Assembly (NCBI GenBank): GCA_963677595.1
Contig: OY782041.1
Span: 2,016,001-2,080,000 of the forward strand
Origin: Spirochaetia bacterium
GTDB lineage: Bacteria; Spirochaetota; Spirochaetia; CAKZLE01
Reading direction: 5' to 3'
DNA: 64,000 nt
Shown here: positions 45,151 to 62,004 of the stretch, in pieces
Position numbering within the stretch: the stretch's first letter is position 1
Layout: each line of letters opens with the position of its first letter
The notes under the pieces: model-generated
The model's database searches: none
Told to the model about the DNA's origin: nothing
The model's input: the letters and a program-made list of their open reading frames with translations, nothing else
Program-made: the position numbers and the translations under genes

Positions 45151-46434
45151 ATGAGCGCAGAAACAAAGAAAGGGGCATTCGACTGGTACTTCAAGTCGAA
45201 CCTGCTCATCAGGATATTCATCGGCCTGGTTGCCGGTGCATTGGTCGGTATCATATTCGGTGAGAGCATCACCTGGCTGAACCCGCTGGGAAGTATCCTG
45301 GTAGGCCTGCTGAAGATGATCGTCATGCCGGTCATCCTGTCGACCCTCGTCGTCGGCGCGGCTAGCATCAAGCCTTCGACCCTCGGCAAGGTCGGGGTGA
45401 AGATCATCGTCTTCTACATGATCACCTCAGCCTTCGCGGTCGCAGTCGGCCTGCTGATGGGGAACATCTTCAAGCCCGGACTCGGGCTGGCCCTCGGCTC
45501 GGCAGCTGATGCCGCCGGGAAGGTCCTCACGAAGCCCAACTTCATGGACACCCTCATCGCGATCATCCCGACGAATCCCTTCGGTGCCATCTCGAACGGT
45601 CAGGTCCTGCCGACGATCTTCTTCGCGATCATTCTCGGGATCGCTATCTCCTTCCTGCGGGACAGCAAGACTGCACGTATCAAGGAGAGCGCCGAGACGA
45701 TCTTTCGTGTGTTCGACGGCCTTGCAGAGGCGATGTACCTGATCGTCAACGGCGTACTGCAGTATGCCCCGATCGGTGTCTTCGCCCTGATCGCAGTCGT
45801 CTTCGGGAAGCAGGGAGCATCCGCTGTAGGGTCCCTGGGGACCGTGACACTCGCTGCCTTCCTCGGATACATCGTCCATGTCGCTGTCGTCTACACGATC
45901 ATCCTCTTGGTCAGCAAGATCAGTCCCGCCAAATTCTTCAAGGGAGCACGGGCACCGATGGTCACCGCGTTCGTCACACGATCGAGCAGCGGTACGCTGC
46001 CTGTCACCATGAAGGCCATGGATGAGAACTTCGGGGTCTCGAAGAACGTCTACTCCTTCACTCTCCCGCTCGGCGCGACCATCAACATGGATGGTACGGC
46101 CATCTACCAGGGTGTCTGTGCACTCTTCATCGGCTTCGCTATCGGCATGCCGCTCTCCTTCGCCCAGCAGATGACGGTCATCGTCACTGCAGTGCTCGCA
46201 TCGATCGGTACAGCCGGAGTTCCCGGTGCAGGTGCGATCATGCTCCTCATGGTACTCAACTCGGTAGGCCTCCCGGTAGAGGCAGGCACCCCGGTAGCGG
46301 CTGCCTACGCCATGGTCCTCGGGATCGACGCGATCCTCGATATGGGACGGACTGCTGTCAATGTGACCGGTGACATGACCGGTACCCTCGTTGTCGCAAA
46401 GAGCGAAAAGCAGGTAGATGCAGCAAAGCTATAA
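45151..46434 (+). CDS. Dicarboxylate/amino acid:cation symporter (GltP/GltPh family)
   Basis: TRSSSGTLP, GATINMDGT, GTAGVPG, DMGRTAVNV. Confidence 0.95.
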   Translation: MSAETKKGAFDWYFKSNLLIRIFIGLVAGALVGIIFGESITWLNPLGSILVGLLKMIVMPVILSTLVVGAASIKPSTLGKVGVKIIVFYMITSAFAVAVGLLMGNIFKPGLGLALGSAADAAGKVLTKPNFMDTLIAIIPTNPFGAISNGQVLPTIFFAIILGIAISFLRDSKTARIKESAETIFRVFDGLAEAMYLIVNGVLQYAPIGVFALIAVVFGKQGASAVGSLGTVTLAAFLGYIVHVAVVYTIILLVSKISPAKFFKGARAPMVTAFVTRSSSGTLPVTMKAMDENFGVSKNVYSFTLPLGATINMDGTAIYQGVCALFIGFAIGMPLSFAQQMTVIVTAVLASIGTAGVPGAGAIMLLMVLNSVGLPVEAGTPVAAAYAMVLGIDAILDMGRTAVNVTGDMTGTLVVAKSEKQVDAAKL

Positions 46435-47185
46435 CCCCAGTCGGATGATCATCATCGGCGGCGGCGTCGGCCCCCTCGCGGGGGTCGACCTCCACCGGCA
46501 GATCATCGAACTGACTGAGACGACCGGGAGGGACCAGGACCACCTGCGGGTGCTCCACCTCTCCTGTTCAGACATGATCCCCGACAGGACGGAAGCCCTG
46601 CTTGGGGGAAACCCGGAAGGCCCGGCATTGGGGATGGCACGGATCCTCACGGCAGCTGAAGCCTGCTGTGACCGCATGTTCCTCCAGGGGTATGCCGCAG
46701 TTCCCTGCAATACCTTCCATGCCCCGGCGATCTGGGACCGCTTCCAGCAGGCCCTGGCCGAGGCAGGTTCAAGGCTGCAGGTCCTGAACATGATCAGCAT
46801 CACGATCGATCATATACGGACGTGCTATCCCGGGATCCGGAGGATCGGCATCATGTCGACCACCGGGACCCGGAAGACAGGAGTCTATGCTGGGCTCCTC
46901 GCTGAGGCTGGGTATGAGACGGTCCAGACTGATGACCAGGAGCTGCTGCATGAGATGATCTACAACACCTCCTACGGTATCAAGGCTGTGGCGCCAGTAT
47001 CTGGGGAGGCTATGGGGATCGGCAGGAGGATCCTTGCAGAGCTCCAGGACAAGGGTGCGGAGGCAGTCATCCTTGGCTGCACCGAACTACCGCTTGCCCT
47101 TCCAGAATCGCAGTACCGGGGGATCCCCCTGATCAACCCCGTCCGGCTCCTCGCTCTGGAACTGATCCGCAGCGTGCGTCAATAA
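46418..47185 (+). CDS. Aspartate/glutamate racemase family protein
   Basis: GGGVGPLA, DQDH, PDRT, two catalytic cysteines PCNT and GCTE. Confidence 0.9.
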   Translation: MQQSYNPSRMIIIGGGVGPLAGVDLHRQIIELTETTGRDQDHLRVLHLSCSDMIPDRTEALLGGNPEGPALGMARILTAAEACCDRMFLQGYAAVPCNTFHAPAIWDRFQQALAEAGSRLQVLNMISITIDHIRTCYPGIRRIGIMSTTGTRKTGVYAGLLAEAGYETVQTDDQELLHEMIYNTSYGIKAVAPVSGEAMGIGRRILAELQDKGAEAVILGCTELPLALPESQYRGIPLINPVRLLALELIRSVRQ

Positions 47186-47289
47186 CCGTAACGACAGAGC
47201 CCTCCCATTCATGCTGCCGCCTCGAGAGAGGCGGCTTTCTGCAGTGGTATATCCCAGATGAATTTTGTATGAATCGTATAGATTCACTC

Positions 47290-47368
47290 TTGCTTTATTT
47301 CAAAAACCGTCGTATTATGGAAACCAATAAGAAAGCAAAACGAAAGTTAAAAGAAAGCTTTCAGAAAA
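47290..47368 (+). promoter_or_regulatory. Promoter and candidate DeoR operator repeats
   Basis: TTGCTT-17-TATTAT, then GAAA(G/A) at 47331, 47342, 47353 and 47364 (11-bp period). Confidence 0.55.
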
Positions 47369-47375
47369 GGTTGGC

Positions 47376-48131
47376 GTGGTGAACGGGTTAAGCAAACGTG
47401 AAGAGATCATCCTCGGGCAGATGCGGGACGGTCGGGATATCTCAGTCTCAGAACTGAGTAAGCTCCTGAAGGTCTCCGTCGTCACGGTCCGTGCCGATCT
47501 GAAGTCCCTGGATGAGAAAGGCCTGGTGATCAGGACACACGGGGGCGCGATGCCCGCTTTCCATCCGGACCTCCTGGAGCGGAAGAACAGCCGTAATGCG
47601 GAAAAAGAGCGTATAGCCAAGGCTGCCGCCTCCCTGGTCAAGGACGGGGACCGGATCATGATCACGAACGGGACAACCTCTGCACTGGTTGGCAGGTACC
47701 TGCTGGGACGAAGGGATGTGCAGATCGTCACCAACTCGACCCTCCTTCTCCCTTATGCCCGGATCAATCCGAATCTGAGCATCACGTTCGTTGGCGGTGA
47801 GTTCAGGCCCTCCGCAGAGGCTCTCGTGGGGCCTGAGGCGATAAACCGTATCGACCAGTTCCATGTCTCCATGACCATTACCGGGACGGATGGGTTCACC
47901 CTGGAGCATGGGCTTACCACCCACCTGGTCGAGAATGCCGAGATCGTGAGGAAGATGTGCCAGCAGTCTGATACCAGCGTGCTGGTGGTGGATTCCAGCA
48001 AGTTCGGGAATAAGGGTTTTGTGAAGATCCTTCCGTTGGAAGATATCGATATATTGATCACAGATACAGGATTGGACGACGAGATCGCCCGGAGCATAGA
48101 GGCTGCCGGGGTACAGGTCATGCGGGTCTGA
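47376..48131 (+). CDS. DeoR/GlpR family transcriptional regulator
   Basis: VSVVTVRADL..L, RTHGG, GTT, VTNS, DSSKF. Confidence 0.94.
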   Translation: MVNGLSKREEIILGQMRDGRDISVSELSKLLKVSVVTVRADLKSLDEKGLVIRTHGGAMPAFHPDLLERKNSRNAEKERIAKAAASLVKDGDRIMITNGTTSALVGRYLLGRRDVQIVTNSTLLLPYARINPNLSITFVGGEFRPSAEALVGPEAINRIDQFHVSMTITGTDGFTLEHGLTTHLVENAEIVRKMCQQSDTSVLVVDSSKFGNKGFVKILPLEDIDILITDTGLDDEIARSIEAAGVQVMRV

Positions 48132-48162
48132 TCCGGTATATCATGAATGAGGAGATGAATAC

Positions 48163-49530
48163 ATGGCAGCACAGGTGTTAATGCCGAAGCAGGGAAACTC
48201 AGTCGAGTCCTGCATAATCCTGGATTGGAAGAAGGCTGAGGGTGATACGATCGCCGAGGGTGAGATCCTCTGCGAGGTCGAGACTGACAAGGCGACCATC
48301 GAGGTCGAGTCCACTGCGGAAGGTACGATCCTGAAGCTGCTCTATGCGGTGGATGACGATGTCCCTGTACAGGTCCCCATCGCTATCGTGGGAGCCCCCG
48401 GGGAAGATATCTCCGACCTGGCAGGTGGGAGTGAGACGGCAGCTGAAGCACCGGCAGAGGAAGCAGCGGTAACCCCCGAAGCAGCCCCGAAGGCAGAAGC
48501 GAAAGTAGAAAAAGCAACTGCAGTCGTTGCAGCAGGCACCAGTTCAGTCTCCCCCCGTGCACGGATGGCGGCAGAGAAGAGCGGCCTCGATGCAACGACA
48601 CTCGTCGGTTCCGGGCCGAAGGGCAGGGTGATCGAACGTGATGTCGATGCTGCAGCGGCAGCCATGCCTCCCCTTTCACCGGCAGCGAAAGAGAAGATGG
48701 CAGCAGAAGGGCTTTCAGCCCCGGCAGCCGGAAGCGGGATCGGCGGACGGGTCCTCTCCTCGGACCTCCTCTCCCTCAGTTCACAGCTTTCGGCAGAACA
48801 GGTCGCTGATGCGGCTGCCGCAGCCGGGTTCCCGGGACCTGCGGCAGAGATCAAGGTTCGTGGTGTACGGAAAGTCACCGCGAAGCGGATGTACGAATCG
48901 ATCAGCACCACCGCCCAGCTGACGCTCAACAGCTCAGCCGATGCGGCGAACCTCCTTGCATTACGAAAGCGATTCAAGAACTCAGACCCTGAGAAGGGAC
49001 TTGCCAAGGTCACCATCAATGACCTCGTGCTCTACGCAGTAGCGAAGACCTTAAAGGCATATCCCCAGATCAACTCCCACTTCCTCGGGGACACCATCCT
49101 GCAGTTCGACCATATCCACCTCGGGTGTGCCGTCGATACCCCGAAGGGCCTCATGGTACCGGTCATCAGGTATGCTGACCTCATGAGCCTGAAGACCCTG
49201 AGCGATACCGCCAAGGGGCTCTTCAACGACTGCCTCGAGGGGAAGGCTAATCCTGACACCCTCTCAGGCGGTACCTTCACGGTGACCAACCTCGGGGGCA
49301 TGGGGATCGAGAGCTTTACACCGGTACTCAACACACCGGAGACCGGTATCCTCGGCGTGAGCACGATCGAGCTCAAGCCGGTACAGGGCGCTGACGGGGT
49401 GGAGTTCATCCCCCACATCGGCCTCTCGCTCACCTTCGATCACCAGGCCTTCGATGGTGCTGACGGAGCACGGTTCCTCAAGAGCCTTGCGGACAATATA
49501 AAGAATATCGACCTGCTCATGGCGCAGTAG
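48163..49530 (+). CDS. Dihydrolipoamide acyltransferase (E2)
   Basis: Lipoyl domain ETDKA, two subunit-binding-like repeats (GSG..GRV...D), FTVTNLG, DHQAFDG. Confidence 0.93.
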   Translation: MAAQVLMPKQGNSVESCIILDWKKAEGDTIAEGEILCEVETDKATIEVESTAEGTILKLLYAVDDDVPVQVPIAIVGAPGEDISDLAGGSETAAEAPAEEAAVTPEAAPKAEAKVEKATAVVAAGTSSVSPRARMAAEKSGLDATTLVGSGPKGRVIERDVDAAAAAMPPLSPAAKEKMAAEGLSAPAAGSGIGGRVLSSDLLSLSSQLSAEQVADAAAAAGFPGPAAEIKVRGVRKVTAKRMYESISTTAQLTLNSSADAANLLALRKRFKNSDPEKGLAKVTINDLVLYAVAKTLKAYPQINSHFLGDTILQFDHIHLGCAVDTPKGLMVPVIRYADLMSLKTLSDTAKGLFNDCLEGKANPDTLSGGTFTVTNLGGMGIESFTPVLNTPETGILGVSTIELKPVQGADGVEFIPHIGLSLTFDHQAFDGADGARFLKSLADNIKNIDLLMAQ

Positions 49531-49551
49531 TCAATAAAGGAGAAGATACTC

Positions 49552-50889
49552 ATGGCAACCTATGATCTGATCGTCGTCGGGGCTGGCCCCGGGGGCTATG
49601 TGGCTGCTGAACGGGCCGGTGAGATGGGAAAGAAGGTCCTTCTCATCGAGAAGGGTGACCTCGGCGGTGTATGCACCAACTCAGGCTGTATCCCGACGAA
49701 GTCCCTGCTCAATGCGGCAAAGCATTACCATTACGCGCTCACCGGCGACAAGTTCGGTGTACACTGCGCTGATGTCTCCTTCGACCTCTCTGAGGCCATG
49801 GCCTGGAAGCAGGACGTCATCGAGACCCTGCGCTCCGGGATCGCCTTCCTCATGAAGAAGAACAAGGTCGAAGTGGTCTTCGGCGAGGCGAAGTTCGTCT
49901 CACGCGATACCGTGGAAGTCGACGGGACAGCCTATACCGGTTCCAACATCATGATCGCAACCGGCTCATCACCCTTCATCCCGCCGATCCCCGGCGCAGG
50001 GAACGACATCGTGATGACCAGCAAGGACATCCTCTCGATCGACCATATCCCTGAGAAGCTCGTCGTCATCGGCGGCGGGGTCATCGGGGTGGAGTTCTCC
50101 TCCCTCTTCAGCAACATCGGGAGCGAGGTCACCGTCATCGAGATGATGCCTGAGATCCTGCCGATGATGGACGCCGAGTTCGCCAAACTCATGCGGCGGG
50201 AGATGAAGGCAGTCACCTTTAAGACCGGCTGCAGGGTAGAGGAGATCCTCACCGACGGTGTCGTCTATACCGATGCGAAAGGAAAGAAGCAGACGGTGAA
50301 CGCTGATGCGGTCCTCCTCAGTGTCGGTCGGAGACCGAACACCGCAGGACTCGAGGCCCTCGGCCTCGATATCGCGCGGGGCGGGATCGTTGTCGACGAG
50401 CAGATGCGAACCAACCTCCCCGGCGTATATGCTGTAGGGGATGTGAACGGGAAGTCGCTGCTTGCCCACTCCGCATCACGGATGGGGGAAGTCGCCGTCA
50501 ATACGATGTTCGGCAAGGCTGACAGGATGCGCTACAACGCGATCCCCTGGGCAGTCTACACCATCCCTGAGGCAGCAGGCTGCGGGATGACCGAGGAAGA
50601 GGCAAAGGCCAAGGGCTACAACGTGAAGAGCGCCTCGGCCCAGATGCGGTCGAACGGCCGGTTCCTCGCTGAGTACGGGAAGCGTGCAGGCGGCCTGTGC
50701 AAGGTAGTCGTCGATGCCGATACCGATGTGATCCTCGGGATCCACCTCCTCGGTGCGGTCAGCAGCGAGATGGTCCACAGCGCTTCGGTGATCATCGAGG
50801 CGGAGCTGAGGGCCAAGGACGTGAGAGAGATAGTCTTCCCGCACCCGAGTGTGTCGGAAATCATCAAGGACGTTTGCTTTGCCCTCTAG
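49552..50889 (+). CDS. lpdA: Dihydrolipoyl dehydrogenase (E3)
   Basis: GAGPGG, GGVCTNSGCIP, GGGVIGVE, HPSVSE. Confidence 0.95.
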   Translation: MATYDLIVVGAGPGGYVAAERAGEMGKKVLLIEKGDLGGVCTNSGCIPTKSLLNAAKHYHYALTGDKFGVHCADVSFDLSEAMAWKQDVIETLRSGIAFLMKKNKVEVVFGEAKFVSRDTVEVDGTAYTGSNIMIATGSSPFIPPIPGAGNDIVMTSKDILSIDHIPEKLVVIGGGVIGVEFSSLFSNIGSEVTVIEMMPEILPMMDAEFAKLMRREMKAVTFKTGCRVEEILTDGVVYTDAKGKKQTVNADAVLLSVGRRPNTAGLEALGLDIARGGIVVDEQMRTNLPGVYAVGDVNGKSLLAHSASRMGEVAVNTMFGKADRMRYNAIPWAVYTIPEAAGCGMTEEEAKAKGYNVKSASAQMRSNGRFLAEYGKRAGGLCKVVVDADTDVILGIHLLGAVSSEMVHSASVIIEAELRAKDVREIVFPHPSVSEIIKDVCFAL

Positions 50890-50932
50890 CCGGCAAAGAG
50901 TTATATAGAGTTATAAAACCAGGAGTGACAAG

Positions 50933-53386
50933 ATGCCTAGAAATCTAGTAGTGGATCCAGTAGCTATACGAAAGAAAGAGACCGTGAAGATCAATTCGAT
51001 CCCGGTGAACCAGTATACCGGCGATATCAAGAAAGAGGTCAAGAAGTACGGGAAAGACGGCCTGAAGCGCGTCTATCTCGACATGCTCCTGATCAGGGAG
51101 TTCGAGAACATGCTCGACCTGATCAAGCGGGAAGGTTCCTACCAGGGGATGGAGTACAACCACCGGGGACCTGCACACCTCTCAGCAGGGCAGGAGTCTG
51201 CTGCAGTCGGCCAGTGCCTCAACCTGCAGCCGGAGGACTTCATCTTCGGTTCACACCGTTCACACGGTGAGATCCTCGCCAAGTGTTTCTCAGCGATCCA
51301 GAAGATCGACGAGACGAACCTGCAGACCATCATGGAAGGGTTCATGGGCGGGGATGTCCTCTCAGTCGTGGACAAGCACTTCAAGGGCAAGGACGTGAAG
51401 GACCTCGCAGAGAACTTCGTTCTCTACGGGGCACTTGCAGAGATCTTCGCACGTAAGACCGGGTTCAGCCGGGGTCTCGGCGGATCGATGCACACCTTCT
51501 TCGCTCCCTTCGGTTCCATGCCTAACAATGCCATAGTCGGGGGGTCAGGCGACATCGCAGTCGGCGCGGCCCTCTATAAGAAGATAAACAGGAAGCCGGG
51601 GATCGTCATCGCGAATATCGGGGATGCAGCGATGGCGTGCGGCCCAGTCTGGGAAGGATTGATGCTTGCGGCAATGGACCAGTACAACACCCTCTGGGGT
51701 GACATGGCTGGTGCTCCACCATACATGCTCAACGTATTCAACAACTTCTACGGGATGGGCGGCCAGACAGTCGGCGAGACTATGGGGTATGGGATACCTG
51801 CAAGAGTCGGTGCTGGTGTGAATCCTGACGGGATGCATGCAGAACGGGTAGACGGGTTCAACCCGCTGGCCGTCGCTGATGCGATCGAGAGGAAACGAGC
51901 CCTCATGCTCGAGGGTAAGGGACCTGTCCTGATGGATACGATCACCTACCGACTCTCAGGTCACTCGCCTTCCGATGCGTCCTCATACAGGACCAAGGAA
52001 GAGATCGACTCCTTCAAGGAGAAGGACGCGATCCTCGGCTACGAGGCGTACCTCAAGGAGAACGGCATCATCACCGATGATGAGATCGCAGCCTACCGGG
52101 AGAACGTCGTGGCGAAGATCTCCAAGACCATGGAGCTCGCCATCAACGATGAGATTTCCACGCGGGTCGACGGCAAGTTCATCGAGTCAGTGATGTTCTC
52201 GAACGGGAACGTAGAAGCCCTCGATGATGCTGAACCGGAACTGCTCACACCGATCGAGGAGAACCCGAGGGTACAGCAGATCGCACGGAAGGTCCGGACC
52301 TCTACCAAGGACGGCAAGCCGGTACCTGCAGCACGGATGTACCAGTACCGTGACGGTATCTTCGAGGCGATGCTCTACCGGTTCGCCAAGGACCCGACCA
52401 TGATTGCCTATGGTGAGGATAACCGTGACTGGGGCGGCGCATTCGCCTGCTACCGCGGACTTACCGAGATCCTCCCGTACCACAGGTTCTTCAATTCACC
52501 GATCTCCGAGGCCTCCATCGTGGGTTCCGGTGTCGGATACGCCATGAGCGGCGGCCGTGCGGTCGTGGAGCTCATGTACTGTGACTTCATGGGAAGGGCA
52601 GGAGACCAGATCTTCAACCAGATGCCTAAGTGGCAGTCGATGAGCGCAGGCGTCCTCAAGATGCCGCTCGTCCTCCGGGTATCTGTTGGTAACAAGTACG
52701 GTGCACAGCACTCACAGGACTGGACCGCACTCGTCGGCCATATCCCGGGGCTCAAGGTCATGTTCCCGGCGACTCCCTACGATGCAAAGGGTATGTTGAA
52801 CCTGGCACTGAGGGGGACCGACCCGGTCGTCTTCTTCGAGAGCCAGAAACTCTACGGTATTGGGGAGGACTTCGAGGCAGACGGCGTACCAGAGGGGTTC
52901 TATGAGGTACCGGAAGGGGAGCCGGCAGTCAAGAAGACCGGGGATGACATCACGATCATCACCATCGGTGCCACCCTCTATTCTGCGATGGAAGCAGCTA
53001 AGGAACTCGAGGAGAAATACGGCATGAGCGCTGAGGTCATCGACCTCCGGTTCATCAACCCGCTCAACTACGGACCACTCGTGGAATCCGTGAAGAAGAC
53101 CGGACGGGTCCTGCTCTCCTCAGACGCAGTCGAGAGAGGCTCATTCCTCCACACCGTCTCCTCCAACCTGGGACGGCTCGCATTCGATTACCTCGATGCA
53201 CCGCCGGTCGTCGTCGGCTCACGGAACTGGATCACACCGCCGGCAGAGATGGAAGACTACTACTTCCCGACGGCAGCATGGATGCTTGACGCGATCCACG
53301 AACAGATCCTCCCGCTTGCAGGCCACACTGTCTCCACGGTCCAGACCGACGGGGAGTTCGTGAAGGTCCAGCGGGAAGGCGTATAA
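50933..53386 (+). CDS. Fused E1 alpha/beta ThDP-dependent dehydrogenase (2-oxoacid/acetoin type)
   Basis: HLSAGQE, HRSHG, GGSMH, GDAA..NN ThDP motif, YRLSGHS, SPISE, GAQHSQ. Confidence 0.92.
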
Positions 53387-53396
53387 GGAAGTACCC

Positions 53397-54740
53397 ATGG
53401 CACACACAGAATACGATGCAGTGATAGAAAGATTGAACGCGCCGCTGCTTGCCGACCGGCTGGCAGCAGCCGAAGAGGTCGGGAAGCTGATCTCTGACGG
53501 GAAGCTTACCCGGACCGTGTCGGAGGAGGTGAACAACCACGTCCACACGACCTACTCCTTCAGCCCCTATGAACCGGCGATGGCCGCATTCAGGGCCTGG
53601 GAGTCAGGACTCCAGATCGTCGGCAGCATCGACCATGACAGCATCAGTGCTGCAGAGGAGATGATGGCTGCCGGCAAGGCGATCGGGATCGCCACCACCG
53701 TCGGGTTCGAAGTACGGTGCAGCTTCCTCGAGACGTCCTTGAAGGACAAGAAGATCAACAACCCGGACTCTGAAGGCATCGTCTATATGTGTGTGCATGG
53801 AGTACCTGCACAGCATATCGAAGAGGTGAAAGAGTTCCTGAAGCCAGTCAACAGGGTGCGAAACATCAGGAACCGTGCAGAGGTCGAGAGGCTCAACAGC
53901 CTGATCGAGGGCAGCGGCCTCGCACCCCTCGATTTCGATGCAGATGTGGCATCTCTCTCGAGGATGTCAGAGAACGGCTCGATCACCGAGCGCCATATCC
54001 TCTCTGCCTTCGCGGGCAGGATCATGGACTCCTGCGGGAAGGGGGAGGCTGTCGTGGCCTTCCTCGAGAATAACCTGAAGCTTACTGTCGCCGGTAAGAT
54101 CAGGGAGGTCCTGCTCGATACGGGGAACCCCCATTACCGGTATGACCTGCTCGGGATCCTCAAGAGCTCCTACCTGCCGCAGTTCTTCATCCAGCCGAGC
54201 GTCGAGGAGACCATCCCGGCCGAGGAGGTCGTCTCCTTCTCGCTGAAGATCGGGGCGATCCCCTCCTATGCATACCTCGGGGACGTGACCGAGAGCCCTA
54301 CCGGGGACAAGAAGGCCGAGAAGTTCGAGGACAGCTTCCTCGATGAGCTCTTCGACCTGCTGAAAGCTATCGGGTACCCTGCGGTAACCTATATGCCGCC
54401 GCGAAACAGCGTCGAGCAGCTCAAGCGAATCCAGGATCTTGCGCACAAGCACGACATGATGGAGATCAGCGGAGTCGATATAAACTCGTCACGGCAGAGC
54501 TTCAACTGTCCTGAACTGCTGATGCCCGAGTTCTCCCACCTGATCGACTCAGCCTGGGCGCTCGTCGCACATGAGAAACTCGCAGGCATAGACGGGAAGT
54601 ACGCGATCTTCAACAGCGAGAACCCCTTCGCGGGGATGGCCCTGTCCGAGCGTATCGCCCTGTATGCCGAGGTGGGGAAGAAGATGGACCCCCATACGCC
54701 GGAAGCGGCTCTGAAGGTCCTTGAGGAGGTAAGGAAATGA
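53397..54740 (+). CDS. PHP-domain metal-dependent phosphoesterase-like protein
   Basis: NNHVHTTYS, DHDS and GFE motifs. Confidence 0.8.
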   Translation: MAHTEYDAVIERLNAPLLADRLAAAEEVGKLISDGKLTRTVSEEVNNHVHTTYSFSPYEPAMAAFRAWESGLQIVGSIDHDSISAAEEMMAAGKAIGIATTVGFEVRCSFLETSLKDKKINNPDSEGIVYMCVHGVPAQHIEEVKEFLKPVNRVRNIRNRAEVERLNSLIEGSGLAPLDFDADVASLSRMSENGSITERHILSAFAGRIMDSCGKGEAVVAFLENNLKLTVAGKIREVLLDTGNPHYRYDLLGILKSSYLPQFFIQPSVEETIPAEEVVSFSLKIGAIPSYAYLGDVTESPTGDKKAEKFEDSFLDELFDLLKAIGYPAVTYMPPRNSVEQLKRIQDLAHKHDMMEISGVDINSSRQSFNCPELLMPEFSHLIDSAWALVAHEKLAGIDGKYAIFNSENPFAGMALSERIALYAEVGKKMDPHTPEAALKVLEEVRK

Positions 54741-55861
54741 GTAACAGCAGCAACCTGATCCCATACCTGAGGGGTCTGACGTTCGACGGTGAGAAGGGGC
54801 TCTTCATCACGCAGGTGGAGACTGTCTCCTCTGATGATGTCCTGAGACTCTCCTCCGATGAACAGAGTCAGGTAACAGCACAGTTCGAGAACTATGTAAC
54901 AGAGAAAAAGGCATATCCTGCGGCAGTCATCCTGCCGGATGGGACCTGCCATGCCATAGGGGCTACCTTCGATGAGGCGCTCGCAGCTGCCGGCTGCAGC
55001 GCCGAGCCGGGGACTCCCGGCTCGAAGGCACGCGGCGACGTCGTCAGGGGGAAGATAGCCCTTGTCACCGGCGGTGCCCAGGGCTTCGGCGAGGGGATGG
55101 TCCGCGGCCTGATCGCTGAAGGCGCCTTCGTCTATATCGCGGACATGAACTACGCAGGGGCGAAAGACCTTGCAGGGGCGCTGAACACCGAGGCCGGGAA
55201 GACCGTGGCCTGCCCGTTGGAAGTCAACGTGACCGATGAGGATTCCGTTGCCGCGATGATCAGCAGTGTCGCCGACATCACCGGCGGGTTTGACATCTTC
55301 ATCAGCAATGCCGGGGTTCTCCGTGCAGGGAGCGTGAAGGAGATGACCTTGCGGGACTTCAACTTCGTCACCTCTGTCGACTATGTCGGCTTCTTCATCT
55401 GCACCAAGTTCGCTTCCCAGCTGCTTGCCCTGCAGCACCAGGCCGCACCCGGCTATATGACCGACATCATCGCGATCAGCTCCAAGTCGGGACTCGAGGG
55501 GTCGAACAAGAACGGTGCCTATGCCGGTGCCAAGTTCGGGACCATCGGGCTCACCCAGAGCTTCGCGCTCGAGCTGGTGACCGACGGGGTCAAGGTGAAT
55601 GCCATCTGCCCGGGGAACTTCCTCGACGGGCCGCTGTGGTCGGATCCTGACCGGGGTCTGTTCGTGCAGTACCTCAATGCCGGGAAGGTCCCGGGGGCGA
55701 AGACCGTCGCCGATGTGAGACGGTTCTACGAGTCGAAAGTACCACTCGATCGTGGATGCACGACCGAGGATGTCATGAAGGCTGTCTGCTACTGCGTGGA
55801 GCAGAAGTACGAGACAGGACAGGCTGTCCCCGTTACCGGCGGACAGGTCATGCTCAATTAG
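54737..55861 (+). CDS. SDR, sorbitol-6-phosphate 2-dehydrogenase-like, with ~100-aa N-terminal extension
   Basis: TGGAQGFG, SNAG, SSKSG..GS.KN..YAGAKFG..GLTQS.ALEL, KVPL.RGC, TGGQVM. Confidence 0.85.
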   Translation: MSNSSNLIPYLRGLTFDGEKGLFITQVETVSSDDVLRLSSDEQSQVTAQFENYVTEKKAYPAAVILPDGTCHAIGATFDEALAAAGCSAEPGTPGSKARGDVVRGKIALVTGGAQGFGEGMVRGLIAEGAFVYIADMNYAGAKDLAGALNTEAGKTVACPLEVNVTDEDSVAAMISSVADITGGFDIFISNAGVLRAGSVKEMTLRDFNFVTSVDYVGFFICTKFASQLLALQHQAAPGYMTDIIAISSKSGLEGSNKNGAYAGAKFGTIGLTQSFALELVTDGVKVNAICPGNFLDGPLWSDPDRGLFVQYLNAGKVPGAKTVADVRRFYESKVPLDRGCTTEDVMKAVCYCVEQKYETGQAVPVTGGQVMLN

Positions 55862-55873
55862 GAGGAAACTGAT

Positions 55874-57133
55874 ATGAAGACGAAAGCAGTACGATTATAC
55901 GGAGTGAACGATCTCAGGCTCGAGGAGTTCGAGCTTCCTGAGCTGAAAGAGGACGAGATCCTCGCGAAAGTCATCACGAACAGCATCTGTATGTCCAGCC
56001 ACAAGGCTGCGGAGCAGGGGAATGCCCATAAGCGTGTCCCGCAGAACATCGCCGAGGAACCGGTCATCGTGGGCCATGAGTTCTGCGGTGAGCTCGTCGA
56101 GGTCGGCAGCAAGTGGGCCGATAAGTTCTCCGCTGGGGACAAGTTCTCCATTCAGCCGGCCCTCAACTACAAGGGGTCGCTCGATGCGCCCGGCTACTCC
56201 TACCGATGGATCGGCGGGAATGCCACCTACATCATCATCCCCAACGAGGTCATGGAGATGGACTGCCTGCTTCCCTATAACGGGGATGCATACTTCCACG
56301 GTTCCTTGTCAGAGCCGGTCTCCTGTATCGTCGGCACCTACCATGCTATGTACCACACCACGCCCGGCTCCTACGTCCATGAGATGGAGATCGTCGAGGG
56401 CGGGAAGATGGCGATCATCGCCGGTGTAGGCCCCATGGGGCTCGGTGCGATCGACTACGCCATCCATAACGACCGGAAACCGGGACTCCTCGTCGTCACC
56501 GATATCGACCAGGCACGACTCGACCGGGCGGCAGTCCTCTACAGTGTGGAAGAGGCAAAGAAGAACGGGGTGGAGCTCATCTACCTCAATACCCGTGAAG
56601 TCAAGGACCCGAACCAGGCCCTCATCGACCTGACCGACGGCGAAGGCTTCAACGATGTCTTCGTCATGGCTCCGGTAAGCTTCCTCATCGAGCAGGCTGA
56701 CGCGATCCTCTCACGGGATGGATGCCTCAACTTCTTCGCAGGACCGAACACCCAGGACTTCCGTGCATCATTGAACTTCTATGATGTCCACTATGCCGCA
56801 CACCATATCGTCGGCACGAGCGGCGGGAACACCGATGACATGAAGGAGTCACTGGAGATGATGGAGAAGGGCCTGCTGAACCCGGCCTCCATGGTGACCC
56901 ATGTAGGCGGTATCGACAGCGTGGCACAGACGATCATCGACCTGCCGGGTATCCCGGGCGGGAAGAAGCTGATCTATACCCAGATCGACATGCCGCTCAC
57001 GGCCCTCGTGGACTTCGCTGAGCTCGGCAAGGAAGATGAACTCTTCGCTGCACTGGCTGAGATCGTGGAGAAGCATAACGGCCTCTGGTCACTGGAAGCT
57101 GAGCAGTACCTGCTGGCGAAGAAAGGCGCGTAA
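55874..57133 (+). CDS. Zn-binding dehydrogenase, L-sorbose-1-phosphate reductase (SorE)-like
   Basis: AVRLYG, ICMSSHK, GHEF.G, EPVSC, GVGPMG, GTSGG. Confidence 0.85.
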   Translation: MKTKAVRLYGVNDLRLEEFELPELKEDEILAKVITNSICMSSHKAAEQGNAHKRVPQNIAEEPVIVGHEFCGELVEVGSKWADKFSAGDKFSIQPALNYKGSLDAPGYSYRWIGGNATYIIIPNEVMEMDCLLPYNGDAYFHGSLSEPVSCIVGTYHAMYHTTPGSYVHEMEIVEGGKMAIIAGVGPMGLGAIDYAIHNDRKPGLLVVTDIDQARLDRAAVLYSVEEAKKNGVELIYLNTREVKDPNQALIDLTDGEGFNDVFVMAPVSFLIEQADAILSRDGCLNFFAGPNTQDFRASLNFYDVHYAAHHIVGTSGGNTDDMKESLEMMEKGLLNPASMVTHVGGIDSVAQTIIDLPGIPGGKKLIYTQIDMPLTALVDFAELGKEDELFAALAEIVEKHNGLWSLEAEQYLLAKKGA

Positions 57134-57156
57134 GCAGCACACAAAAGGGAGGCAGC

Positions 57157-58572
57157 ATGAAGAAGTACATCGCAGTTGACTTGGGGGCGTCCAACGGTCG
57201 TGTCATCGTAGGCAACCTTGAGTCATTCGAAGTGACGAACAGGTTCATAACGCGGAACGAGGAGCTAGGCGGTCATGTTTACTGGGACATCGTCTATATC
57301 TTCGCCGAGATCAAGAAAGGGATCAAGGAAGCCTTCAGGCGCTACGGGGATGAGATCGTCTCCATCGGCATCGACACCTGGGGTGTCGACTACGGCCTCC
57401 TTGATGAGGCAGGGGAGCTGATTGGGCTTCCCTACCACTACCGGGACAGCAGGACCGACGGCATGCCCGAGGAGGTCTTCTCCCAGATGCCGAAAGAGGA
57501 TATCTACCGGAACACTGGCATCCAGTTCATGCAGCTCAACACGATCTTCCAGCTTGCTGCCTATAAAAAAGAGCATCCCACGCTCCTGGCTGCGGCTGTA
57601 CAGTACCTCTCGATCCCCGACCTGCTCAACTACTGGCTGACCGGGGTCATGAAGAACGAGTTCTCCCATGCCACGACCACGCAGCTCTATAACCCGGCTG
57701 CACGTGACTGGGCCTGGGACGTCATCGACGCCCTCGGCCTGCCGCGGAAGGTCTTCGGTGAGATCGTACCGAGCGGTACGGTCCTCGGGCCCCTGAGCGG
57801 ACCGGTGGCTCGTGAGCTCGGTGCGCCTGCAGGTGTGCAGGTGATCGCATCCGGCTCCCATGACACGGCAGCGGCAGTCGCGGCTGTTCCCGCGGAAGAG
57901 GGCGAGGAGTACCTCTACCTCTCGAGCGGGACCTGGTCCCTGCTCGGGATGGAGAGCGATGAGCCGATCATCACCGAGAAGAGCCTGGAGTACAACTTCA
58001 CCAATGAGGGGGCTGCCAGCGGCAAGATCCGATTCCTGAAGAACATCATGGGGATGTGGATCCAGCAGGAGTGCATCCGCTGGTGGGAACAGCAGGGTGA
58101 GGAGATCTCCTTCAAGTACCTGGATGCGGAGACCCTGAACGAGGCAGATTTCGCAGGCTATATCGACCCGAACGATGATCGTTTCCTCAAGCCGAACTCG
58201 GCTGACTCGCCGATGCCGCAGCGCATCTGTGACTACTGCACCGAACACGGCATGCCCGCCCCGACGAATCACGGCCAGTACATGACCGCGATCTACCGGG
58301 GACTGGCGAAGGTGTATGCCTTCTACATGAAGCAGATCGAGGAGACTTCAGGCAAGAAGTTCGACCACCTCTATATCATCGGGGGAGGCTCCAAGAACGG
58401 GATCCTCAACCAGTGGACCTCGGACGAGATCGATGCAAAGGTATCGGCCGGACCGGTCGAGGCCACTGCCCTGGGGAACATCCTCGTCCAGGCACTTGCC
58501 TGCGGTGACATCGCAGACCGGGCTGAGGGGCGAAGACTCATCCGTGAGAACCAGGAGATCATCTCCTACTAG
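57157..58572 (+). CDS. rhaB: Rhamnulokinase
   Basis: DLGASNGR, GIDTWGVD, YRDSRT, SHDTA, SSGTWSL, KNIMGMW, GPVEAT. Confidence 0.9.
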   Translation: MKKYIAVDLGASNGRVIVGNLESFEVTNRFITRNEELGGHVYWDIVYIFAEIKKGIKEAFRRYGDEIVSIGIDTWGVDYGLLDEAGELIGLPYHYRDSRTDGMPEEVFSQMPKEDIYRNTGIQFMQLNTIFQLAAYKKEHPTLLAAAVQYLSIPDLLNYWLTGVMKNEFSHATTTQLYNPAARDWAWDVIDALGLPRKVFGEIVPSGTVLGPLSGPVARELGAPAGVQVIASGSHDTAAAVAAVPAEEGEEYLYLSSGTWSLLGMESDEPIITEKSLEYNFTNEGAASGKIRFLKNIMGMWIQQECIRWWEQQGEEISFKYLDAETLNEADFAGYIDPNDDRFLKPNSADSPMPQRICDYCTEHGMPAPTNHGQYMTAIYRGLAKVYAFYMKQIEETSGKKFDHLYIIGGGSKNGILNQWTSDEIDAKVSAGPVEATALGNILVQALACGDIADRAEGRRLIRENQEIISY

Positions 58573-59471
58573 ACGCTGTGAGCCTTCCGGTACTCCCGGG
58601 GGCTCATCTGCATGATCCTCCTGAACTGCCTCGAGAAGTAGTTACTGTCCGAGAACCCCACATACTCTGCGATCATCGTCATCGAATGATTGGTGGTGAT
58701 CAGCAGGGTGCAGGCCTTCCTCACCTTGAGCTGAAGCTGGTACTCGACCGGGGAACAGCCGGCCGCTTTCTGAAAAGCACGGTTGAGCGTGCTGTGGGAC
58801 ATGTGGGTGATCTCGGTGAGTTCCTCGATCCTGATAGTCCGCTCGCTGTTGTTCTCTATGAAGGTGAAAGCGGCAGCGAGCCGGTTGATCACCTGGGAGT
58901 CCGGCAGCGTGTTCTTCGAGTATATCCTTGACAACATGACAATGATCTCAATGAAATAGGCGAGTGACAGCGTCCTCGAAGAGTACTCCTCCTCGCGGAA
59001 GGCCAGCTCCTTCTTGAGCAGCTCGATCCGCTCGACGATCTGGGTGAGCTCCCTGGCTGAGAGCTTCAGGCGGCTGCTGAACTCATGGTCCTGCCGGTAC
59101 TTCGGCTCGATGTTGAAGATGGCATGGTAGCCGGGAATCCTGCTCAGGTCGAAGAGCCGCTGGTCGAGGAAGTCCCGGTCGAAGATGATGTTATAGAGAT
59201 TGAGCTCCTCGGTCCTGCTGTACCCGTGGGAGTAGCCGGCCTCGAGCACGAAGACGTCACCGGGGAGGATCGCATACTCGGCATGTTCGGTGAAATGGAT
59301 CCCGCTGCCCCCGGTCACGATGACCAGCTCATAGAAATCGTGGGTATGGAGCGGGTAGGGCTTCTGAGGTGAGCGCTCGAGCAGGTCCAGGTGGAAGTCC
59401 TCATGTGAGAAGATCATCGAGGACCGGAGGAGCGGTGAGTAGGGGGTCTCCCTGGTTGGCAGCCTGTTCAT
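58569..59471 (-). CDS. AraC family regulator (RhaS/RhaR-like)
   Basis: HTHDFYEL cupin, GFSDSNYFSRQF HTH; divergent from rhaA. Confidence 0.9.
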   Translation of the reverse strand: MNRLPTRETPYSPLLRSSMIFSHEDFHLDLLERSPQKPYPLHTHDFYELVIVTGGSGIHFTEHAEYAILPGDVFVLEAGYSHGYSRTEELNLYNIIFDRDFLDQRLFDLSRIPGYHAIFNIEPKYRQDHEFSSRLKLSARELTQIVERIELLKKELAFREEEYSSRTLSLAYFIEIIVMLSRIYSKNTLPDSQVINRLAAAFTFIENNSERTIRIEELTEITHMSHSTLNRAFQKAAGCSPVEYQLQLKVRKACTLLITTNHSMTMIAEYVGFSDSNYFSRQFRRIMQMSPREYRKAHSV

Positions 59472-59565
59472 GACATAATAGTGCTAAAAAACGATAGGAT
59501 AGTCAAGGCGGATTCCCCCAACCGGTGCTACCATGGGTATAGTTGTAAAAGAATCAGGAGGAATC

Positions 59566-60837
59566 ATGATGACAAGAGAACAGGTAACCGGGGCATATGA
59601 GCTGGCGAAACAGGCCTATGCTGACCTGGGAATAGATACGGAGAAGGCTATCGAGGCCTTGGGGAACATACCGCTGTCACTGCACTGCTGGCAGGGCGAT
59701 GATGTCGGCGGGTTCGAGACCCCGGATGCCGAGCTGGCAGGCGGTGGTATCCAGGTGACGGGGAATTATCCCGGGAAGGCCCGGAGCGTCGGTGAGCTGC
59801 GATCAGATCTTGAGAAGGTCTACTCCATGCTCGCAGGTACACACCGGCTCAACCTCCATGCAAGCTATGGCGAGTTCGATGGTGAGTCTATCGACCGGGA
59901 CCAGATCGAGGAGAAGCACTTCTCAGGCTGGGTAGACTGGGCGAAGAAGCTCGGGATCGGCGTTGATTTCAATGCGACCTGCTTTTCACACCCGAAGGCA
60001 GCTGATGGGTTCACCCTTTCGAGCAAGGACCCGGAGATCAGGGCATTCTGGATCGAGCACGTGAAGCGGGCCAGGAGGATCTCGGCCTACTTCGGGAAGG
60101 AACTCGGCACTCCCTGTGTCCATAACACCTGGATTCCCGACGGGGGCAAGGACCTCACCGTCGACAAGACCGGGTACCGGAAGATCCTGATGGAGTCACT
60201 CGACGAGATCTTCGCAGATGAACTCCCGAAGGAGCACATGCGGGATGCGGTCGAGACCAAGCTCTTCGGTATCGGGAGCGAGTCCTTCGTCGTCGGTTCC
60301 CATGAGTTCTACATGAACTATGCGAACACCAGGGGAAAGATGGTCTGTCTCGACCTTGGACACTTCCACCCCACCGAGCAGATCTCGGACAAGATCTCAT
60401 CGATGATGCTCTTCCATGACGAACTGCTCCTCCACGTGAGCCGCCCGATGCGATGGGACAGCGATCACGTGGTGATTCTCAATGACGACATCCTCTTCCT
60501 GACCCAGGAACTCGTCCGGTCAGGGAAGATCGATAACATCCACATCGGCCTCGACTTCTTCGATGCCTCCATCAACAGGATCGGGGCATGGGTCACCGGT
60601 GCGAGAGCTACCCAGAAGGGCCTGCTCCTCGCGCTGCTCGAGCCGACCGGGACCCTCATCGGTTACGAGGAAGCCGGAAACAACTACGCACGGATGGGGC
60701 TGCTCGAGCAGCTGAAATCCATGCCGTTCGGGGCTGTCTGGGATGAGGCCTGTGCACGTGCAGGGGTCCCCCTGGAGAGTGAGATCATCGGAGAAGTCCT
60801 CGCCTACGAGCAGGATGTCCTGTCAGAGAGGGCATAA
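59566..60837 (+). CDS. rhaA: L-rhamnose isomerase
   Basis: SLHCWQGDDV, TGNYPGKAR, VETKLFGIG.E, DLGHFHPTE, RWDSDH, GLDFFDASINR. Confidence 0.96.
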   Translation: MMTREQVTGAYELAKQAYADLGIDTEKAIEALGNIPLSLHCWQGDDVGGFETPDAELAGGGIQVTGNYPGKARSVGELRSDLEKVYSMLAGTHRLNLHASYGEFDGESIDRDQIEEKHFSGWVDWAKKLGIGVDFNATCFSHPKAADGFTLSSKDPEIRAFWIEHVKRARRISAYFGKELGTPCVHNTWIPDGGKDLTVDKTGYRKILMESLDEIFADELPKEHMRDAVETKLFGIGSESFVVGSHEFYMNYANTRGKMVCLDLGHFHPTEQISDKISSMMLFHDELLLHVSRPMRWDSDHVVILNDDILFLTQELVRSGKIDNIHIGLDFFDASINRIGAWVTGARATQKGLLLALLEPTGTLIGYEEAGNNYARMGLLEQLKSMPFGAVWDEACARAGVPLESEIIGEVLAYEQDVLSERA

Positions 60838-60841
60838 CCCT

Positions 60842-61942
60842 ATGGAAAAAGCACTGGAACGCCTCATTCAGGCATCACAGATGTACGGGAACAATACGGA
60901 CATGGTCCTCGTCGGCGGGGGCAACACCTCCGTCAAGGATGATGAGGTCATGTATGTGAAGGCCTCAGGGCATGCCCTGGGATCCATCGATGCGACCGGT
61001 TTCGTCAAGATGGATATGAAGGCCATGAGGGCTATCTGGCAGAAGACCTACTCCGCTGACACCGAGCAGCGGGAGGAAGAGGTCCTCGCCGACATGATGG
61101 CGGCACGCTGCGAGGGTGAGACTGCCCGGCCGAGTGTCGAGGCCCTGCTGCACAGCCTCCTGAAGGATCCTTTCGTGATCCATATGCACCCGGGCCTGGT
61201 GAACGGGGTGACCTGTTCCCAGACAGGGGAGCAGACGATCAAGCGGCTCTTCGGGGACCGCTCTGTATGGATCCCGCTGGTCAACCCGGGATACATCCTG
61301 GCGAAGGTTGTCAAGGACGCCATCGAGCAGCATGAGGCCGATACCGGGGTCTACCCCGATATGATCTTCCTGCAGAACCATGGTGTGTTCGTCAGCGGTG
61401 AGACCCTGGAGCGGGTCAATGCCGTCTATGAGGAGATCTCCGATCGACTCGGAAAGGAACTCAAACGGACTCCCGACCTTTCAGCAGTCGAGATTTCCCA
61501 GGAGAGGGCAGGAATCATTGCTGAGGCGATGGGAATCGAACCATACAGCCTCAACAACAAGGAACTCATGGGCTTCCTGGCCGATGAGCAGACCTTCTCC
61601 CCGATCAGCTCCTCGTTCACCCCTGATCATATCGTCTACAGCGGGTTCAAGCCCCTGTGGATAGCAGAAGACGTCTTCTCCGCAGAAGATCCTGCGGCAG
61701 CAGTCACAGAGGCGATAGCCGCTTTCACTGAGGAGCACGGGTCCCCCGCGAAGGTTCTGGCAGTCCAGAATACCGGGGTATTCGCAGTCAATAAGAATGC
61801 ACGTGACCTCTTCCTCGATACCGTGAAGGTTGCGGTATTCACCGAGTCTTTCGGCGGGCCGAGGTTCATGGATGATGACCAGATAGATTTCATCAGGAAC
61901 TGGGAAGTTGAGAAGTACCGGGCGAAGATGAGCAGCACCTGA
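60842..61942 (+). CDS. Class II aldolase/adducin family; probable rhamnulose-1-phosphate aldolase (RhaEW N-domain type)
   Basis: GGGNTSVK, KASG, RPSVE..LH, H.HP, LQNHG, FTPDH, WEVEKYR. Confidence 0.85.
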   Translation: MEKALERLIQASQMYGNNTDMVLVGGGNTSVKDDEVMYVKASGHALGSIDATGFVKMDMKAMRAIWQKTYSADTEQREEEVLADMMAARCEGETARPSVEALLHSLLKDPFVIHMHPGLVNGVTCSQTGEQTIKRLFGDRSVWIPLVNPGYILAKVVKDAIEQHEADTGVYPDMIFLQNHGVFVSGETLERVNAVYEEISDRLGKELKRTPDLSAVEISQERAGIIAEAMGIEPYSLNNKELMGFLADEQTFSPISSSFTPDHIVYSGFKPLWIAEDVFSAEDPAAAVTEAIAAFTEEHGSPAKVLAVQNTGVFAVNKNARDLFLDTVKVAVFTESFGGPRFMDDDQIDFIRNWEVEKYRAKMSST

Positions 61943-61980: not shown

Positions 61981-62004
61981 GCCCCGTGAGAACGGGGCAT
62001 TTTT
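61981..62004 (+). terminator. Intrinsic terminator
   Basis: GCCCCGT-GAGA-ACGGGGC-ATTTTT. Confidence 0.7.

Follow-up and report, generated by a model that had tools for sequence, protein, structure and literature searches.

An operon of eight genes in the genome of a Spirochaetia bacterium (assembly GCA_963677595.1, contig OY782041.1, positions 2,016,001 to 2,080,000, a stretch of 64,000 nucleotides hereafter called the window) encodes a lipoamide-dependent dehydrogenase complex, composed of a thiamine diphosphate (ThDP)-dependent E1, an acyltransferase E2 and a dihydrolipoyl dehydrogenase E3, together with enzymes resembling those that act on polyol phosphates. Genome context makes it highly probable that this module serves the breakdown of the 6-deoxyhexoses L-fucose and L-rhamnose, where it likely replaces the aldolase and lactaldehyde steps, and we favor, with less assurance, a sequence of reactions in which the six-carbon sugar would be cut to acetyl-CoA and a tetrose 4-phosphate. 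The route is likely an undescribed pathway; no description of it was found in open-licence PMC papers or bioRxiv, subscription journals lying outside the scope of the search.

The original prediction, made from the DNA letters, described a tightly packed operon in the order DeoR, E2, E3, fused E1 alpha/beta, PHP-fold protein, SrlD-like short-chain dehydrogenase/reductase (SDR), SorE-like zinc dehydrogenase and rhaB. All eight open reading frames were recovered on the + strand at the positions listed below, separated by intergenic gaps of 31, 21, 43, 10, -4, 12 and 23 bases. The operator upstream of deoR was not mentioned in that prediction, and an AraC regulator, rhaA and a RhaE-like gene (58569-61942), which follow directly on the 3' side of the operon, lay beyond its boundary.

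47290..47318, + strand: possible sigma-70 promoter (TTGCTT-17 bases-TATTAT), read by eye, just 5' of the operator
47320..47368, + strand: operator of five GAAAG-type direct repeats with an 11-bp period, 5' of deoR
47376..48131, + strand: DeoR-family regulator; best model AgaR, with a score under the cut-off
48163..49530, + strand: E2 dihydrolipoyl acyltransferase with lipoyl Lys43, two subunit-binding repeats and a catalytic DHQ
49552..50889, + strand: E3 dihydrolipoyl dehydrogenase; TIGR01350 at 498 bits (cut-off 409), CxxxxC present
50933..53386, + strand: fused E1 alpha/beta (ThDP), 817 aa, predicted to cleave a 1-deoxy-ketose phosphate
53397..54740, + strand: PHP-fold protein of the TrpH/Cv1693/RNase AM type, three usual metal ligands missing
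54737..55861, + strand: SrlD-like polyol-6-phosphate dehydrogenase (SDR); best model SrlD PRK12384
55874..57133, + strand: SorE/YggP-like ketose-1-phosphate reductase, a zinc medium-chain dehydrogenase/reductase (MDR), named from similarity to annotated SorE and YggP
57157..58572, + strand: RhaB-like kinase; TIGR02627 at 465 bits (cut-off 528)
58569..59471, - strand: RhaS/RhaR-like AraC regulator, divergent from rhaA
59533..60837, + strand: L-rhamnose isomerase RhaA; NF002203 and TIGR01748 above cut-off
60839..61942, + strand: RhaE-like class II aldolase-fold protein, from the family scan; possible roles, aldolase or net 4-epimerase

The genes of this operon are linked far beyond chance. Relatives were drawn from 299 of 304 candidate stretches of the genome collection; the best 80 were kept, at 66-88% identity and nearly all labelled Spirochaetota, and linkage was counted over the 62 loci with at least 4 kb of downstream sequence. 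PHP was present in 52 of them. The neighborhood of E1 with PHP, SDR and SorE, whose conservation the original prediction had proposed to check, was found in 51, and 44 of these include RhaB in addition. Among the ten loci lacking PHP, the gene lies elsewhere in eight genomes and was not found in two small assemblies. In a survey of 251 Spirochaetota genomes, an E1 orthologue (at least 58% identity) occurred in 12, of which 11 encode SorE and 11 a close PHP, while SorE was detected in only two other genomes. Cultured carriers of the module include Pleomorphochaeta sp. DL1XJH-081 (L026), and close E1 relatives also carry Clostridia and KSB3 labels.

A shared operator extends this linkage to regulation. 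Of 47 regions upstream of deoR, 29 contain a strict two-unit GAAAG pattern (mean after shuffling, 0.44), and the repeat spacings peak at 11, 22 and 33. With a matrix trained on 37 of 46 deoR upstream regions, the window being excluded, the window site scored 34.6 and was the only strong site in the 4.3-Mb genome (next best, 16.6). Where E2 leads a transcription unit, the operator precedes it in 14 of 15 loci, and it is likewise found 5' of stand-alone PHP in seven of nine genomes, of split-off SorE in five loci and of split-off SDR in two; among random 300-base segments, 0.06% score as high. The remaining 11 rows in which SorE appeared to lead scored low and mostly lie behind another gene or outside the module. 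Since the operator accompanies the separated pieces, E1/E2/E3 belong, on sequence grounds, to a single regulon with the polyol-phosphate genes. The DeoR regulator is the likely binder of the GAAAG repeats. The possible promoter just upstream was not listed by the promoter scanner since its -35 element matches at three of six positions only, and the scan gave no more sites than it did in shuffled sequence.

The complex itself appears specialized. The E1, which sources often label as a 2-oxoisovalerate dehydrogenase, retains its ThDP-binding and catalytic motifs (HRSHG at 108, GDAA at 230), and the inserts reported earlier near these motifs measure some 43 residues behind HRSHG and some 11 within the ThDP motif relative to the human pyruvate dehydrogenase E1; the GDAA position itself varies among orthologues (GDAA, GDGS, GDAS, GDGA). 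Scores on the PdhA models are far below threshold (TIGR03182, 177 against 394; TIGR03181, 114 against 411). The phylogeny was a quick maximum-likelihood search over 39 rows with no bootstrap, one reference row having a broken beta part; its references were five PdhA/BkdA rows and five acetoin-type rows, the latter being annotated, context-checked plasmid genes rather than purified enzymes. In this quick tree, the E1 orthologues and three rhizobial plasmid proteins formed one clade (support 100) on a long branch, sister to a spirochaete clade at 35% identity and apart from the PdhA/BkdA and acetoin-type rows, so that the comparison with PdhAB, BkdA and AcoAB suggested in the original prediction places E1 outside all three. 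Residue 108 of the HRxHG motif is His in E1 and in all five acetoin-type rows, in contrast to Tyr in all five PdhA/BkdA rows, and E1 Arg473 aligns with transketolase Arg358, a phosphate ligand. E1 is predicted to act like an acetoin dehydrogenase, yet it stands outside AcoAB and PdhA by tree and outside PdhA by model score. The basic residues R473, R498 and K588 near the E1 site are invariant in the clade, yet occur among the references and are candidates only.

The E2 comprises a lipoyl domain with its Lys, an E3-binding (subunit-binding) region and a catalytic domain with its His. The DHQ noted previously in place of DHR lies at 426, and DHR is absent from all 60 full-length E2 orthologues (50 DHQ, 5 NHQ, 5 NHM), whereas the three other E2s of this genome all have it. 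Both of the predicted tandem subunit-binding repeats are visible by motif, Pfam scoring the first only; a strict pattern finds two repeats in 28 of the 60 orthologues. Since the genome holds three other lipoamide systems (a fused-type match, an Aco-type split E1 and an AceE-type locus), the operon complex is not the housekeeping one. The earlier view of a specialized complex tied to sugar-phosphate genes is thus borne out by the conserved linkage, the shared operator, the position of E1 outside PdhA/BkdA and these three further systems.

The sugar served is indicated by the surrounding genes. FucI, FucU, RhaA, RhaM, a rhamnose-type ATP-binding cassette (ABC) transporter and a RhaE-like gene are recurrent neighbors, and fuc or rha genes lie next door in 23 of 47 long loci. 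Among the 251 Spirochaetota genomes, all 12 that are E1-positive encode FucI or RhaA, compared with 40 of the 239 others. The 52 FucI/RhaA genomes include 23 with a strong FucA and 7 with RhaD (24 together), as well as 19 with FucO over the cut-off, and not one of these is E1-positive. For a second set, the 50 with the longest contigs were taken from the 80 locus genomes; here FucI exceeded the cut-off in 47, one of the other three having RhaA, while RhaD was found in none and a moderate FucA-like match in three, one of them beside nucleoside phosphorylases. The fucI locus of the source genome contains fucU, a LacI gene and an ABC transporter with no kinase or aldolase gene; because a kinase is missing there, the RhaB-like kinase of the operon likely accepts rhamnulose as well as fuculose. 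The presence of the RhaE-like gene goes with rhamnose: it occurs in 10 of the 52 FucI/RhaA genomes, all E1-positive and all with rhamnose isomerase, and adjoins rhaA in 9 of 10 further genomes, that is, in every one that has it. Three fucose-only genomes (G125, G150 and G258) carry the module and FucI with no RhaE-like gene found, and three others (G029, G207 and G219) carry the module and RhaA with no FucI match.

The two candidate redox enzymes resemble those of sorbose metabolism. On PRK12384 (SrlD) the SDR scored 221 bits, below the cut-off of 307 but the best of 207 models, compared with 129 bits on the RhaEW model, and it matched the SrlD structure 5o3z with an E-value of 8e-45. The N-terminal 100 residues of the SDR are similar to the end of the RhaE-like protein, and the two proteins are fused in G207 and G219; BLAST of the window SDR against the window RhaE-like protein gave no match, and profile comparison gave a 35-column match (P 80%). 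Plasmid genes annotated SorE share 48-49% identity with the SorE-like MDR, and E. coli YggP shares 51%; no curated SorE model was matched. E. coli yggP (L183:5180-6457), an uncharacterized gene of the cmtBA operon, is thus slightly closer to the window enzyme than annotated SorE is.

In the proposed route, FucI or RhaA followed by the RhaB-like kinase would yield L-fuculose-1-phosphate or L-rhamnulose-1-phosphate, which is established chemistry. L-Fuculose-1-phosphate differs from the 6-deoxy form of the SorE substrate at C3 only and from L-rhamnulose-1-phosphate at C4 only, and these single differences hint that the PHP protein might act as a 3-epimerase and the RhaE-like protein as a 4-epimerase. 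The latter might then turn rhamnulose-1-phosphate into its C4 epimer, which would enter the fucose line. SorE and SorD act as a ketose-1-phosphate reductase followed by a polyol-6-phosphate dehydrogenase; by analogy, the SorE-like enzyme would reduce C2 to give a 6-deoxy-hexitol-1-phosphate, and the SrlD-like enzyme would oxidize C5 to give a 1-deoxy-ketohexose-6-phosphate (CH3-CO-CHOH-R), with the phosphate now at C6. The 6-deoxy end would in this way become a methyl ketone, from which acetyl-CoA would follow. Such a 1-deoxy-ketose-6-phosphate can be viewed as acetoin extended by a sugar phosphate: as in acetoin dehydrogenase, E1 would attach ThDP to the methyl ketone and release a tetrose-4-phosphate, after which the C2 unit would pass through the E2 lipoyl arm to CoA, forming acetyl-CoA, and E3 would produce NADH. 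If the PHP protein is a 3-epimerase, fuculose-1-phosphate would become 6-deoxy-L-sorbose-1-phosphate and subsequently 1-deoxy-D-fructose-6-phosphate and D-erythrose-4-phosphate, so that every step would keep the stereochemistry of SorE, SrlD and transketolase; otherwise, 1-deoxy-D-tagatose-6-phosphate would give D-threose-4-phosphate. 1-Deoxyfructose-6-phosphate is a known metabolite (PMC13450708). Our product agrees with the acyl-CoA of the original prediction in so far as that term covers acetyl-CoA, which the prediction did not identify, and its leading proposal, that an ordinary ketose phosphate gives glycolyl-CoA, is not supported as the chief account; genome context points to L-fucose and L-rhamnose. 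We regard as speculative the wider picture in which the E1 clade would be a new class of oxidative ketose-phosphate-cleaving lipoamide complexes, anaerobes would possess a third fucose/rhamnose route to acetyl-CoA and erythrose-4-phosphate free of lactaldehyde and propanediol, the PHP fold would provide a ketose-phosphate 3-epimerase and RhaE a derived 4-epimerase, and rhizobial relatives would cleave pentulose phosphates.

The role of the PHP protein is a weak element of this scheme; it might be a 3-epimerase or, about as likely, a clean-up phosphatase. Pfam gave no match for the window protein itself. Its fold is indicated by a structural model with a predicted local distance difference test (pLDDT) of 95.5, for which 3o0f and 2yb1 were the best Foldseek matches. 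The ligand set of the Cv1693/TrpH type is presumably HxH..D, DH, E, H, H, DxH, and in the window protein it is incomplete, with SDG replaced by SFS (F55), AH by AY and DxH by DIN. No PHP match was found among plasmids, and a metagenome scan with PHP as the single query gave one weak match at 29%. Homologues at 23-26% identity (L168, L171, L174 and L175) lie directly 5' of a class II ketose-bisphosphate-aldolase-like gene, and others are fused to an LPG-synthase membrane domain. In G219, PHP is fused to a mannitol-1-phosphate-dehydrogenase-like domain (L107:6170-8692), the fusion gene being followed by a RhaE-like/SDR fusion (L107:4203-6173) and then lipoate genes.

Several observations, here and in the next two paragraphs, weigh against the proposed route. 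The operator does not extend to the sugar genes: it was not found in the upstream regions of fucI (0 of 26), rhaA (0 of 15), fucU (0 of 13) or rhaM (0 of 17). These units are served by LacI or AraC regulators of their own, and the connection to the sugar is accordingly one of co-occurrence and gene neighborhood. As many as 20 of the 24 aldolase-bearing genomes belong to one family, which reduces the comparison to a handful of independent contrasts. The source genome contains two further, unassigned class II aldolases, one of them beside a second RhaB-like kinase. E. coli pyruvate E1 has a His at the position equivalent to 108 (PMC2663715), so that this residue is not exclusive to ketol cleavers, and Arg473 is present in three of the five 2-oxoacid reference rows. 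The PHP ligand changes were considered as a cluster-specific feature and rejected, because they also occur in homologues at 25-35% identity, including the membrane-domain fusions.

It is improbable, in our estimate, that E1 cleaves xylulose-5-phosphate or fructose-6-phosphate to glycolyl-CoA and an aldose phosphate, even though D-arabinose, another FucI substrate, could reach xylulose-5-phosphate through the same reductase and dehydrogenase. Such cleavage would suit the presence of xylA near 14 and xylB near 12 of the 80 loci (xylA in 13 of the 47 long loci), the occurrence of rhizobial E1 orthologues beside xylulokinase and D-arabinitol-dehydrogenase-like genes, and an E2 that never has DHR, which could mean a non-acetyl acyl group. 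However, the xylA-adjacent loci represent one arrangement, in which xylA runs in the opposite direction with several genes in between, and RhaA, the RhaE-like gene and FucI were also present in each of the five xylA-type genomes tested. Such cleavage would account neither for the rhamnose link nor for the missing FucA, RhaD and FucO, and the several transketolases of the genome make a dedicated enzyme for ordinary ketose phosphates superfluous. The glycolyl idea may nevertheless fit the rhizobial orthologues, which are 52% identical and lie near xylulokinase and a polyol dehydrogenase. A lactyl product can hardly be called probable either: the SDR would oxidize C4 of fucitol-1-phosphate to a 3-ketose, and E1 would transfer a lactyl group, giving lactyl-CoA and glyceraldehyde-3-phosphate. 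The fucose link and the DHQ E2 fit this scheme equally well, and since L-fucose is stereochemically D-arabinose with an extra methyl group, the arabitol-phosphate logic would lead to just this product. Yet the SDR is closest to SrlD, which in a hexitol-6-phosphate oxidizes the carbon adjacent to the terminus opposite the phosphate, and by that rule the oxidized carbon here would be C5.

We consider it unlikely that the RhaE-like protein is a real aldolase forming dihydroxyacetone phosphate and lactaldehyde, leaving the module to handle a C3 fragment (lactaldehyde, hydroxyacetone, or lactate and then pyruvate). RhaEW is a proven aldolase/lactaldehyde dehydrogenase and RhaE a proven rhamnulose-1-phosphate aldolase (PMC3870299), and the features given there are kept in the RhaE-like protein, namely the zinc histidines, a Glu at the catalytic position and the GGGN loop. 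The gene is carried by most E1-positive genomes (10 of 12, then 9 of 10 in the further set, always adjoining rhaA in the latter), and the SDR fusions in G207 and G219 reproduce the RhaEW layout; on TIGR02632 (RhaEW, cut-off 568), the RhaE-like protein scored 92 bits, the SDR 129 and the fused form 213. Against this, the three fucose-only genomes keep the module without a RhaE-like gene, the SDR prefers SrlD over the RhaEW model, and the SorE-like phosphosugar reductase would be left without a role. A mixed case is possible, with rhamnose degraded by the aldolase and fucose by the module, but in G029, G207 and G219 the module accompanies RhaA and no FucI match. Very improbable is a 2-oxoacid-decarboxylating E1 acting on a hydroxylated oxoacid, the sugar genes being co-inherited neighbors. 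This reading can draw on the frequent 2-oxoisovalerate dehydrogenase label and on the closest genetically studied E1, the pRL8 orthologue (52% identity), which lies in pRL80079-88, a region reported in PMC8416774 as a homoserine catabolism cluster; counting genes from pRL80081, a hydrolase (PMC5118466), we infer it to be pRL80083, which a preprint names as needed for homoserine use. However, the pRL8 orthologue is surrounded by genes for a psicose-epimerase-like protein, a sugar kinase, FucU and a sugar ABC transporter, which makes the cluster published as homoserine catabolism look like a sugar pathway; no dehydratase or oxoacid-forming gene was found among the nameable recurrent neighbors, and the shared operator joins E1/E2/E3 to the polyol-phosphate genes.

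Compared with known systems, the acetyl-CoA route combines familiar parts. With acetoin dehydrogenase (AcoA/AcoB/AcoC/AcoL) the complex shares a ThDP E1, a lipoyl E2, an E3 and the HRxHG His, as well as the predicted cleavage of a methyl alpha-ketol to acetyl-CoA and an aldehyde with no release of CO2; the rhizobial orthologues (L093-L096) additionally have a free lipoyl domain and an AcoC-like alpha/beta hydrolase as neighbors. In contrast, the window E1 is fused, 817 aa long and insert-bearing in a separate long-branch clade, its E2 has DHQ, no butanediol dehydrogenase, acoX or acoR was recognized in the operon, and the source genome has its own Aco-type locus elsewhere. Glycyl radical enzymes of the YbiW/PflD route make 1-deoxyfructose-6-phosphate, so this candidate intermediate occurs in nature, but there an aldolase splits it to hydroxyacetone and glyceraldehyde-3-phosphate (PMC13450708). 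As in L-sorbose metabolism through SorE and SorD-SrlD, a ketose-1-phosphate reductase and a polyol-6-phosphate dehydrogenase would move the phosphate between chain ends; unlike it, the window operon lacks a sorbose phosphotransferase system (PTS), entry would be by a RhaB-like kinase, the SDR is under the SrlD cut-off, and the predicted product is a 1-deoxy ketose with no direct entry to glycolysis. The FucI-FucK-FucA-FucO, RhaA-RhaB-RhaD and RhaEW pathways have the same isomerases, kinase type, mutarotases and ABC uptake genes nearby, whereas strong FucA, RhaD and FucO were not found in E1-positive genomes, and the RhaE-like domain is paired here with a SrlD-like SDR instead of RhaW. Transketolase (reverse-DXS-like chemistry) likewise uses ThDP to cleave C2-C3 of a ketose phosphate, with Arg358 as the counterpart of E1 Arg473, but the C2 unit here would be oxidized on lipoamide and passed to CoA rather than going to an aldose or leaving as acetyl phosphate.

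Fucose and rhamnose count among the main sugars in mucin, algal fucoidan and pectin, and in the textbook anaerobic route half of their carbon leaves as 1,2-propanediol or lactate. If the proposed route is correct, many spirochaetes, and probably clostridia, would send all six carbons into central metabolism and, by a rough count, obtain nearly twice the ATP, provided that the extra NADH is disposed of. The missing-aldolase gap in these genomes would be filled, the 2-oxoisovalerate dehydrogenase label would be corrected on a large E1 family with thousands of candidates, and lipoamide complexes would gain a sugar-phosphate substrate.

The sister E1 clade contains fused proteins of about 760 aa at 35% identity, with several copies per genome (L108-L116; G021, G034, G044, G053, G062, G084 and G091), whose neighbors include MtlD-like, DeoR, transaldolase-like, class II aldolase and FGGY kinase genes. 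All ten sister-clade genomes have FucI, with no strong FucA, RhaD or SorE match, and a second version of the route may operate in them. A glycyl radical enzyme beside one of these E1 genes (L115) was considered as YbiW/PflD and rejected, being closer to diol/glycerol dehydratases (697/692 against 569 bits). On the Rhizobium plasmids L151 and L157, E1 alpha/beta and E2 genes follow those for a SorC-type regulator and an NAD(P)H oxidoreductase, and either a sorbitol PTS or a class II aldolase is encoded nearby; to judge from gene content, this set may be a further sugar-linked lipoamide complex.

Elsewhere in the source genome, a FucI-C-domain isomerase, an HpcH-like gene, a class II aldolase and the second RhaB-like kinase lie together (G000:C1:2214000-2225000). 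Within the window, a dicarboxylate/amino-acid symporter followed by an Asp/Glu racemase-family gene (45151-47185) precedes the operon and appears unrelated to it, with a GC hairpin near 47210-47240 in between, and a terminator-like hairpin at 61981-61998 marks the end of the rhaA and RhaE-like unit.

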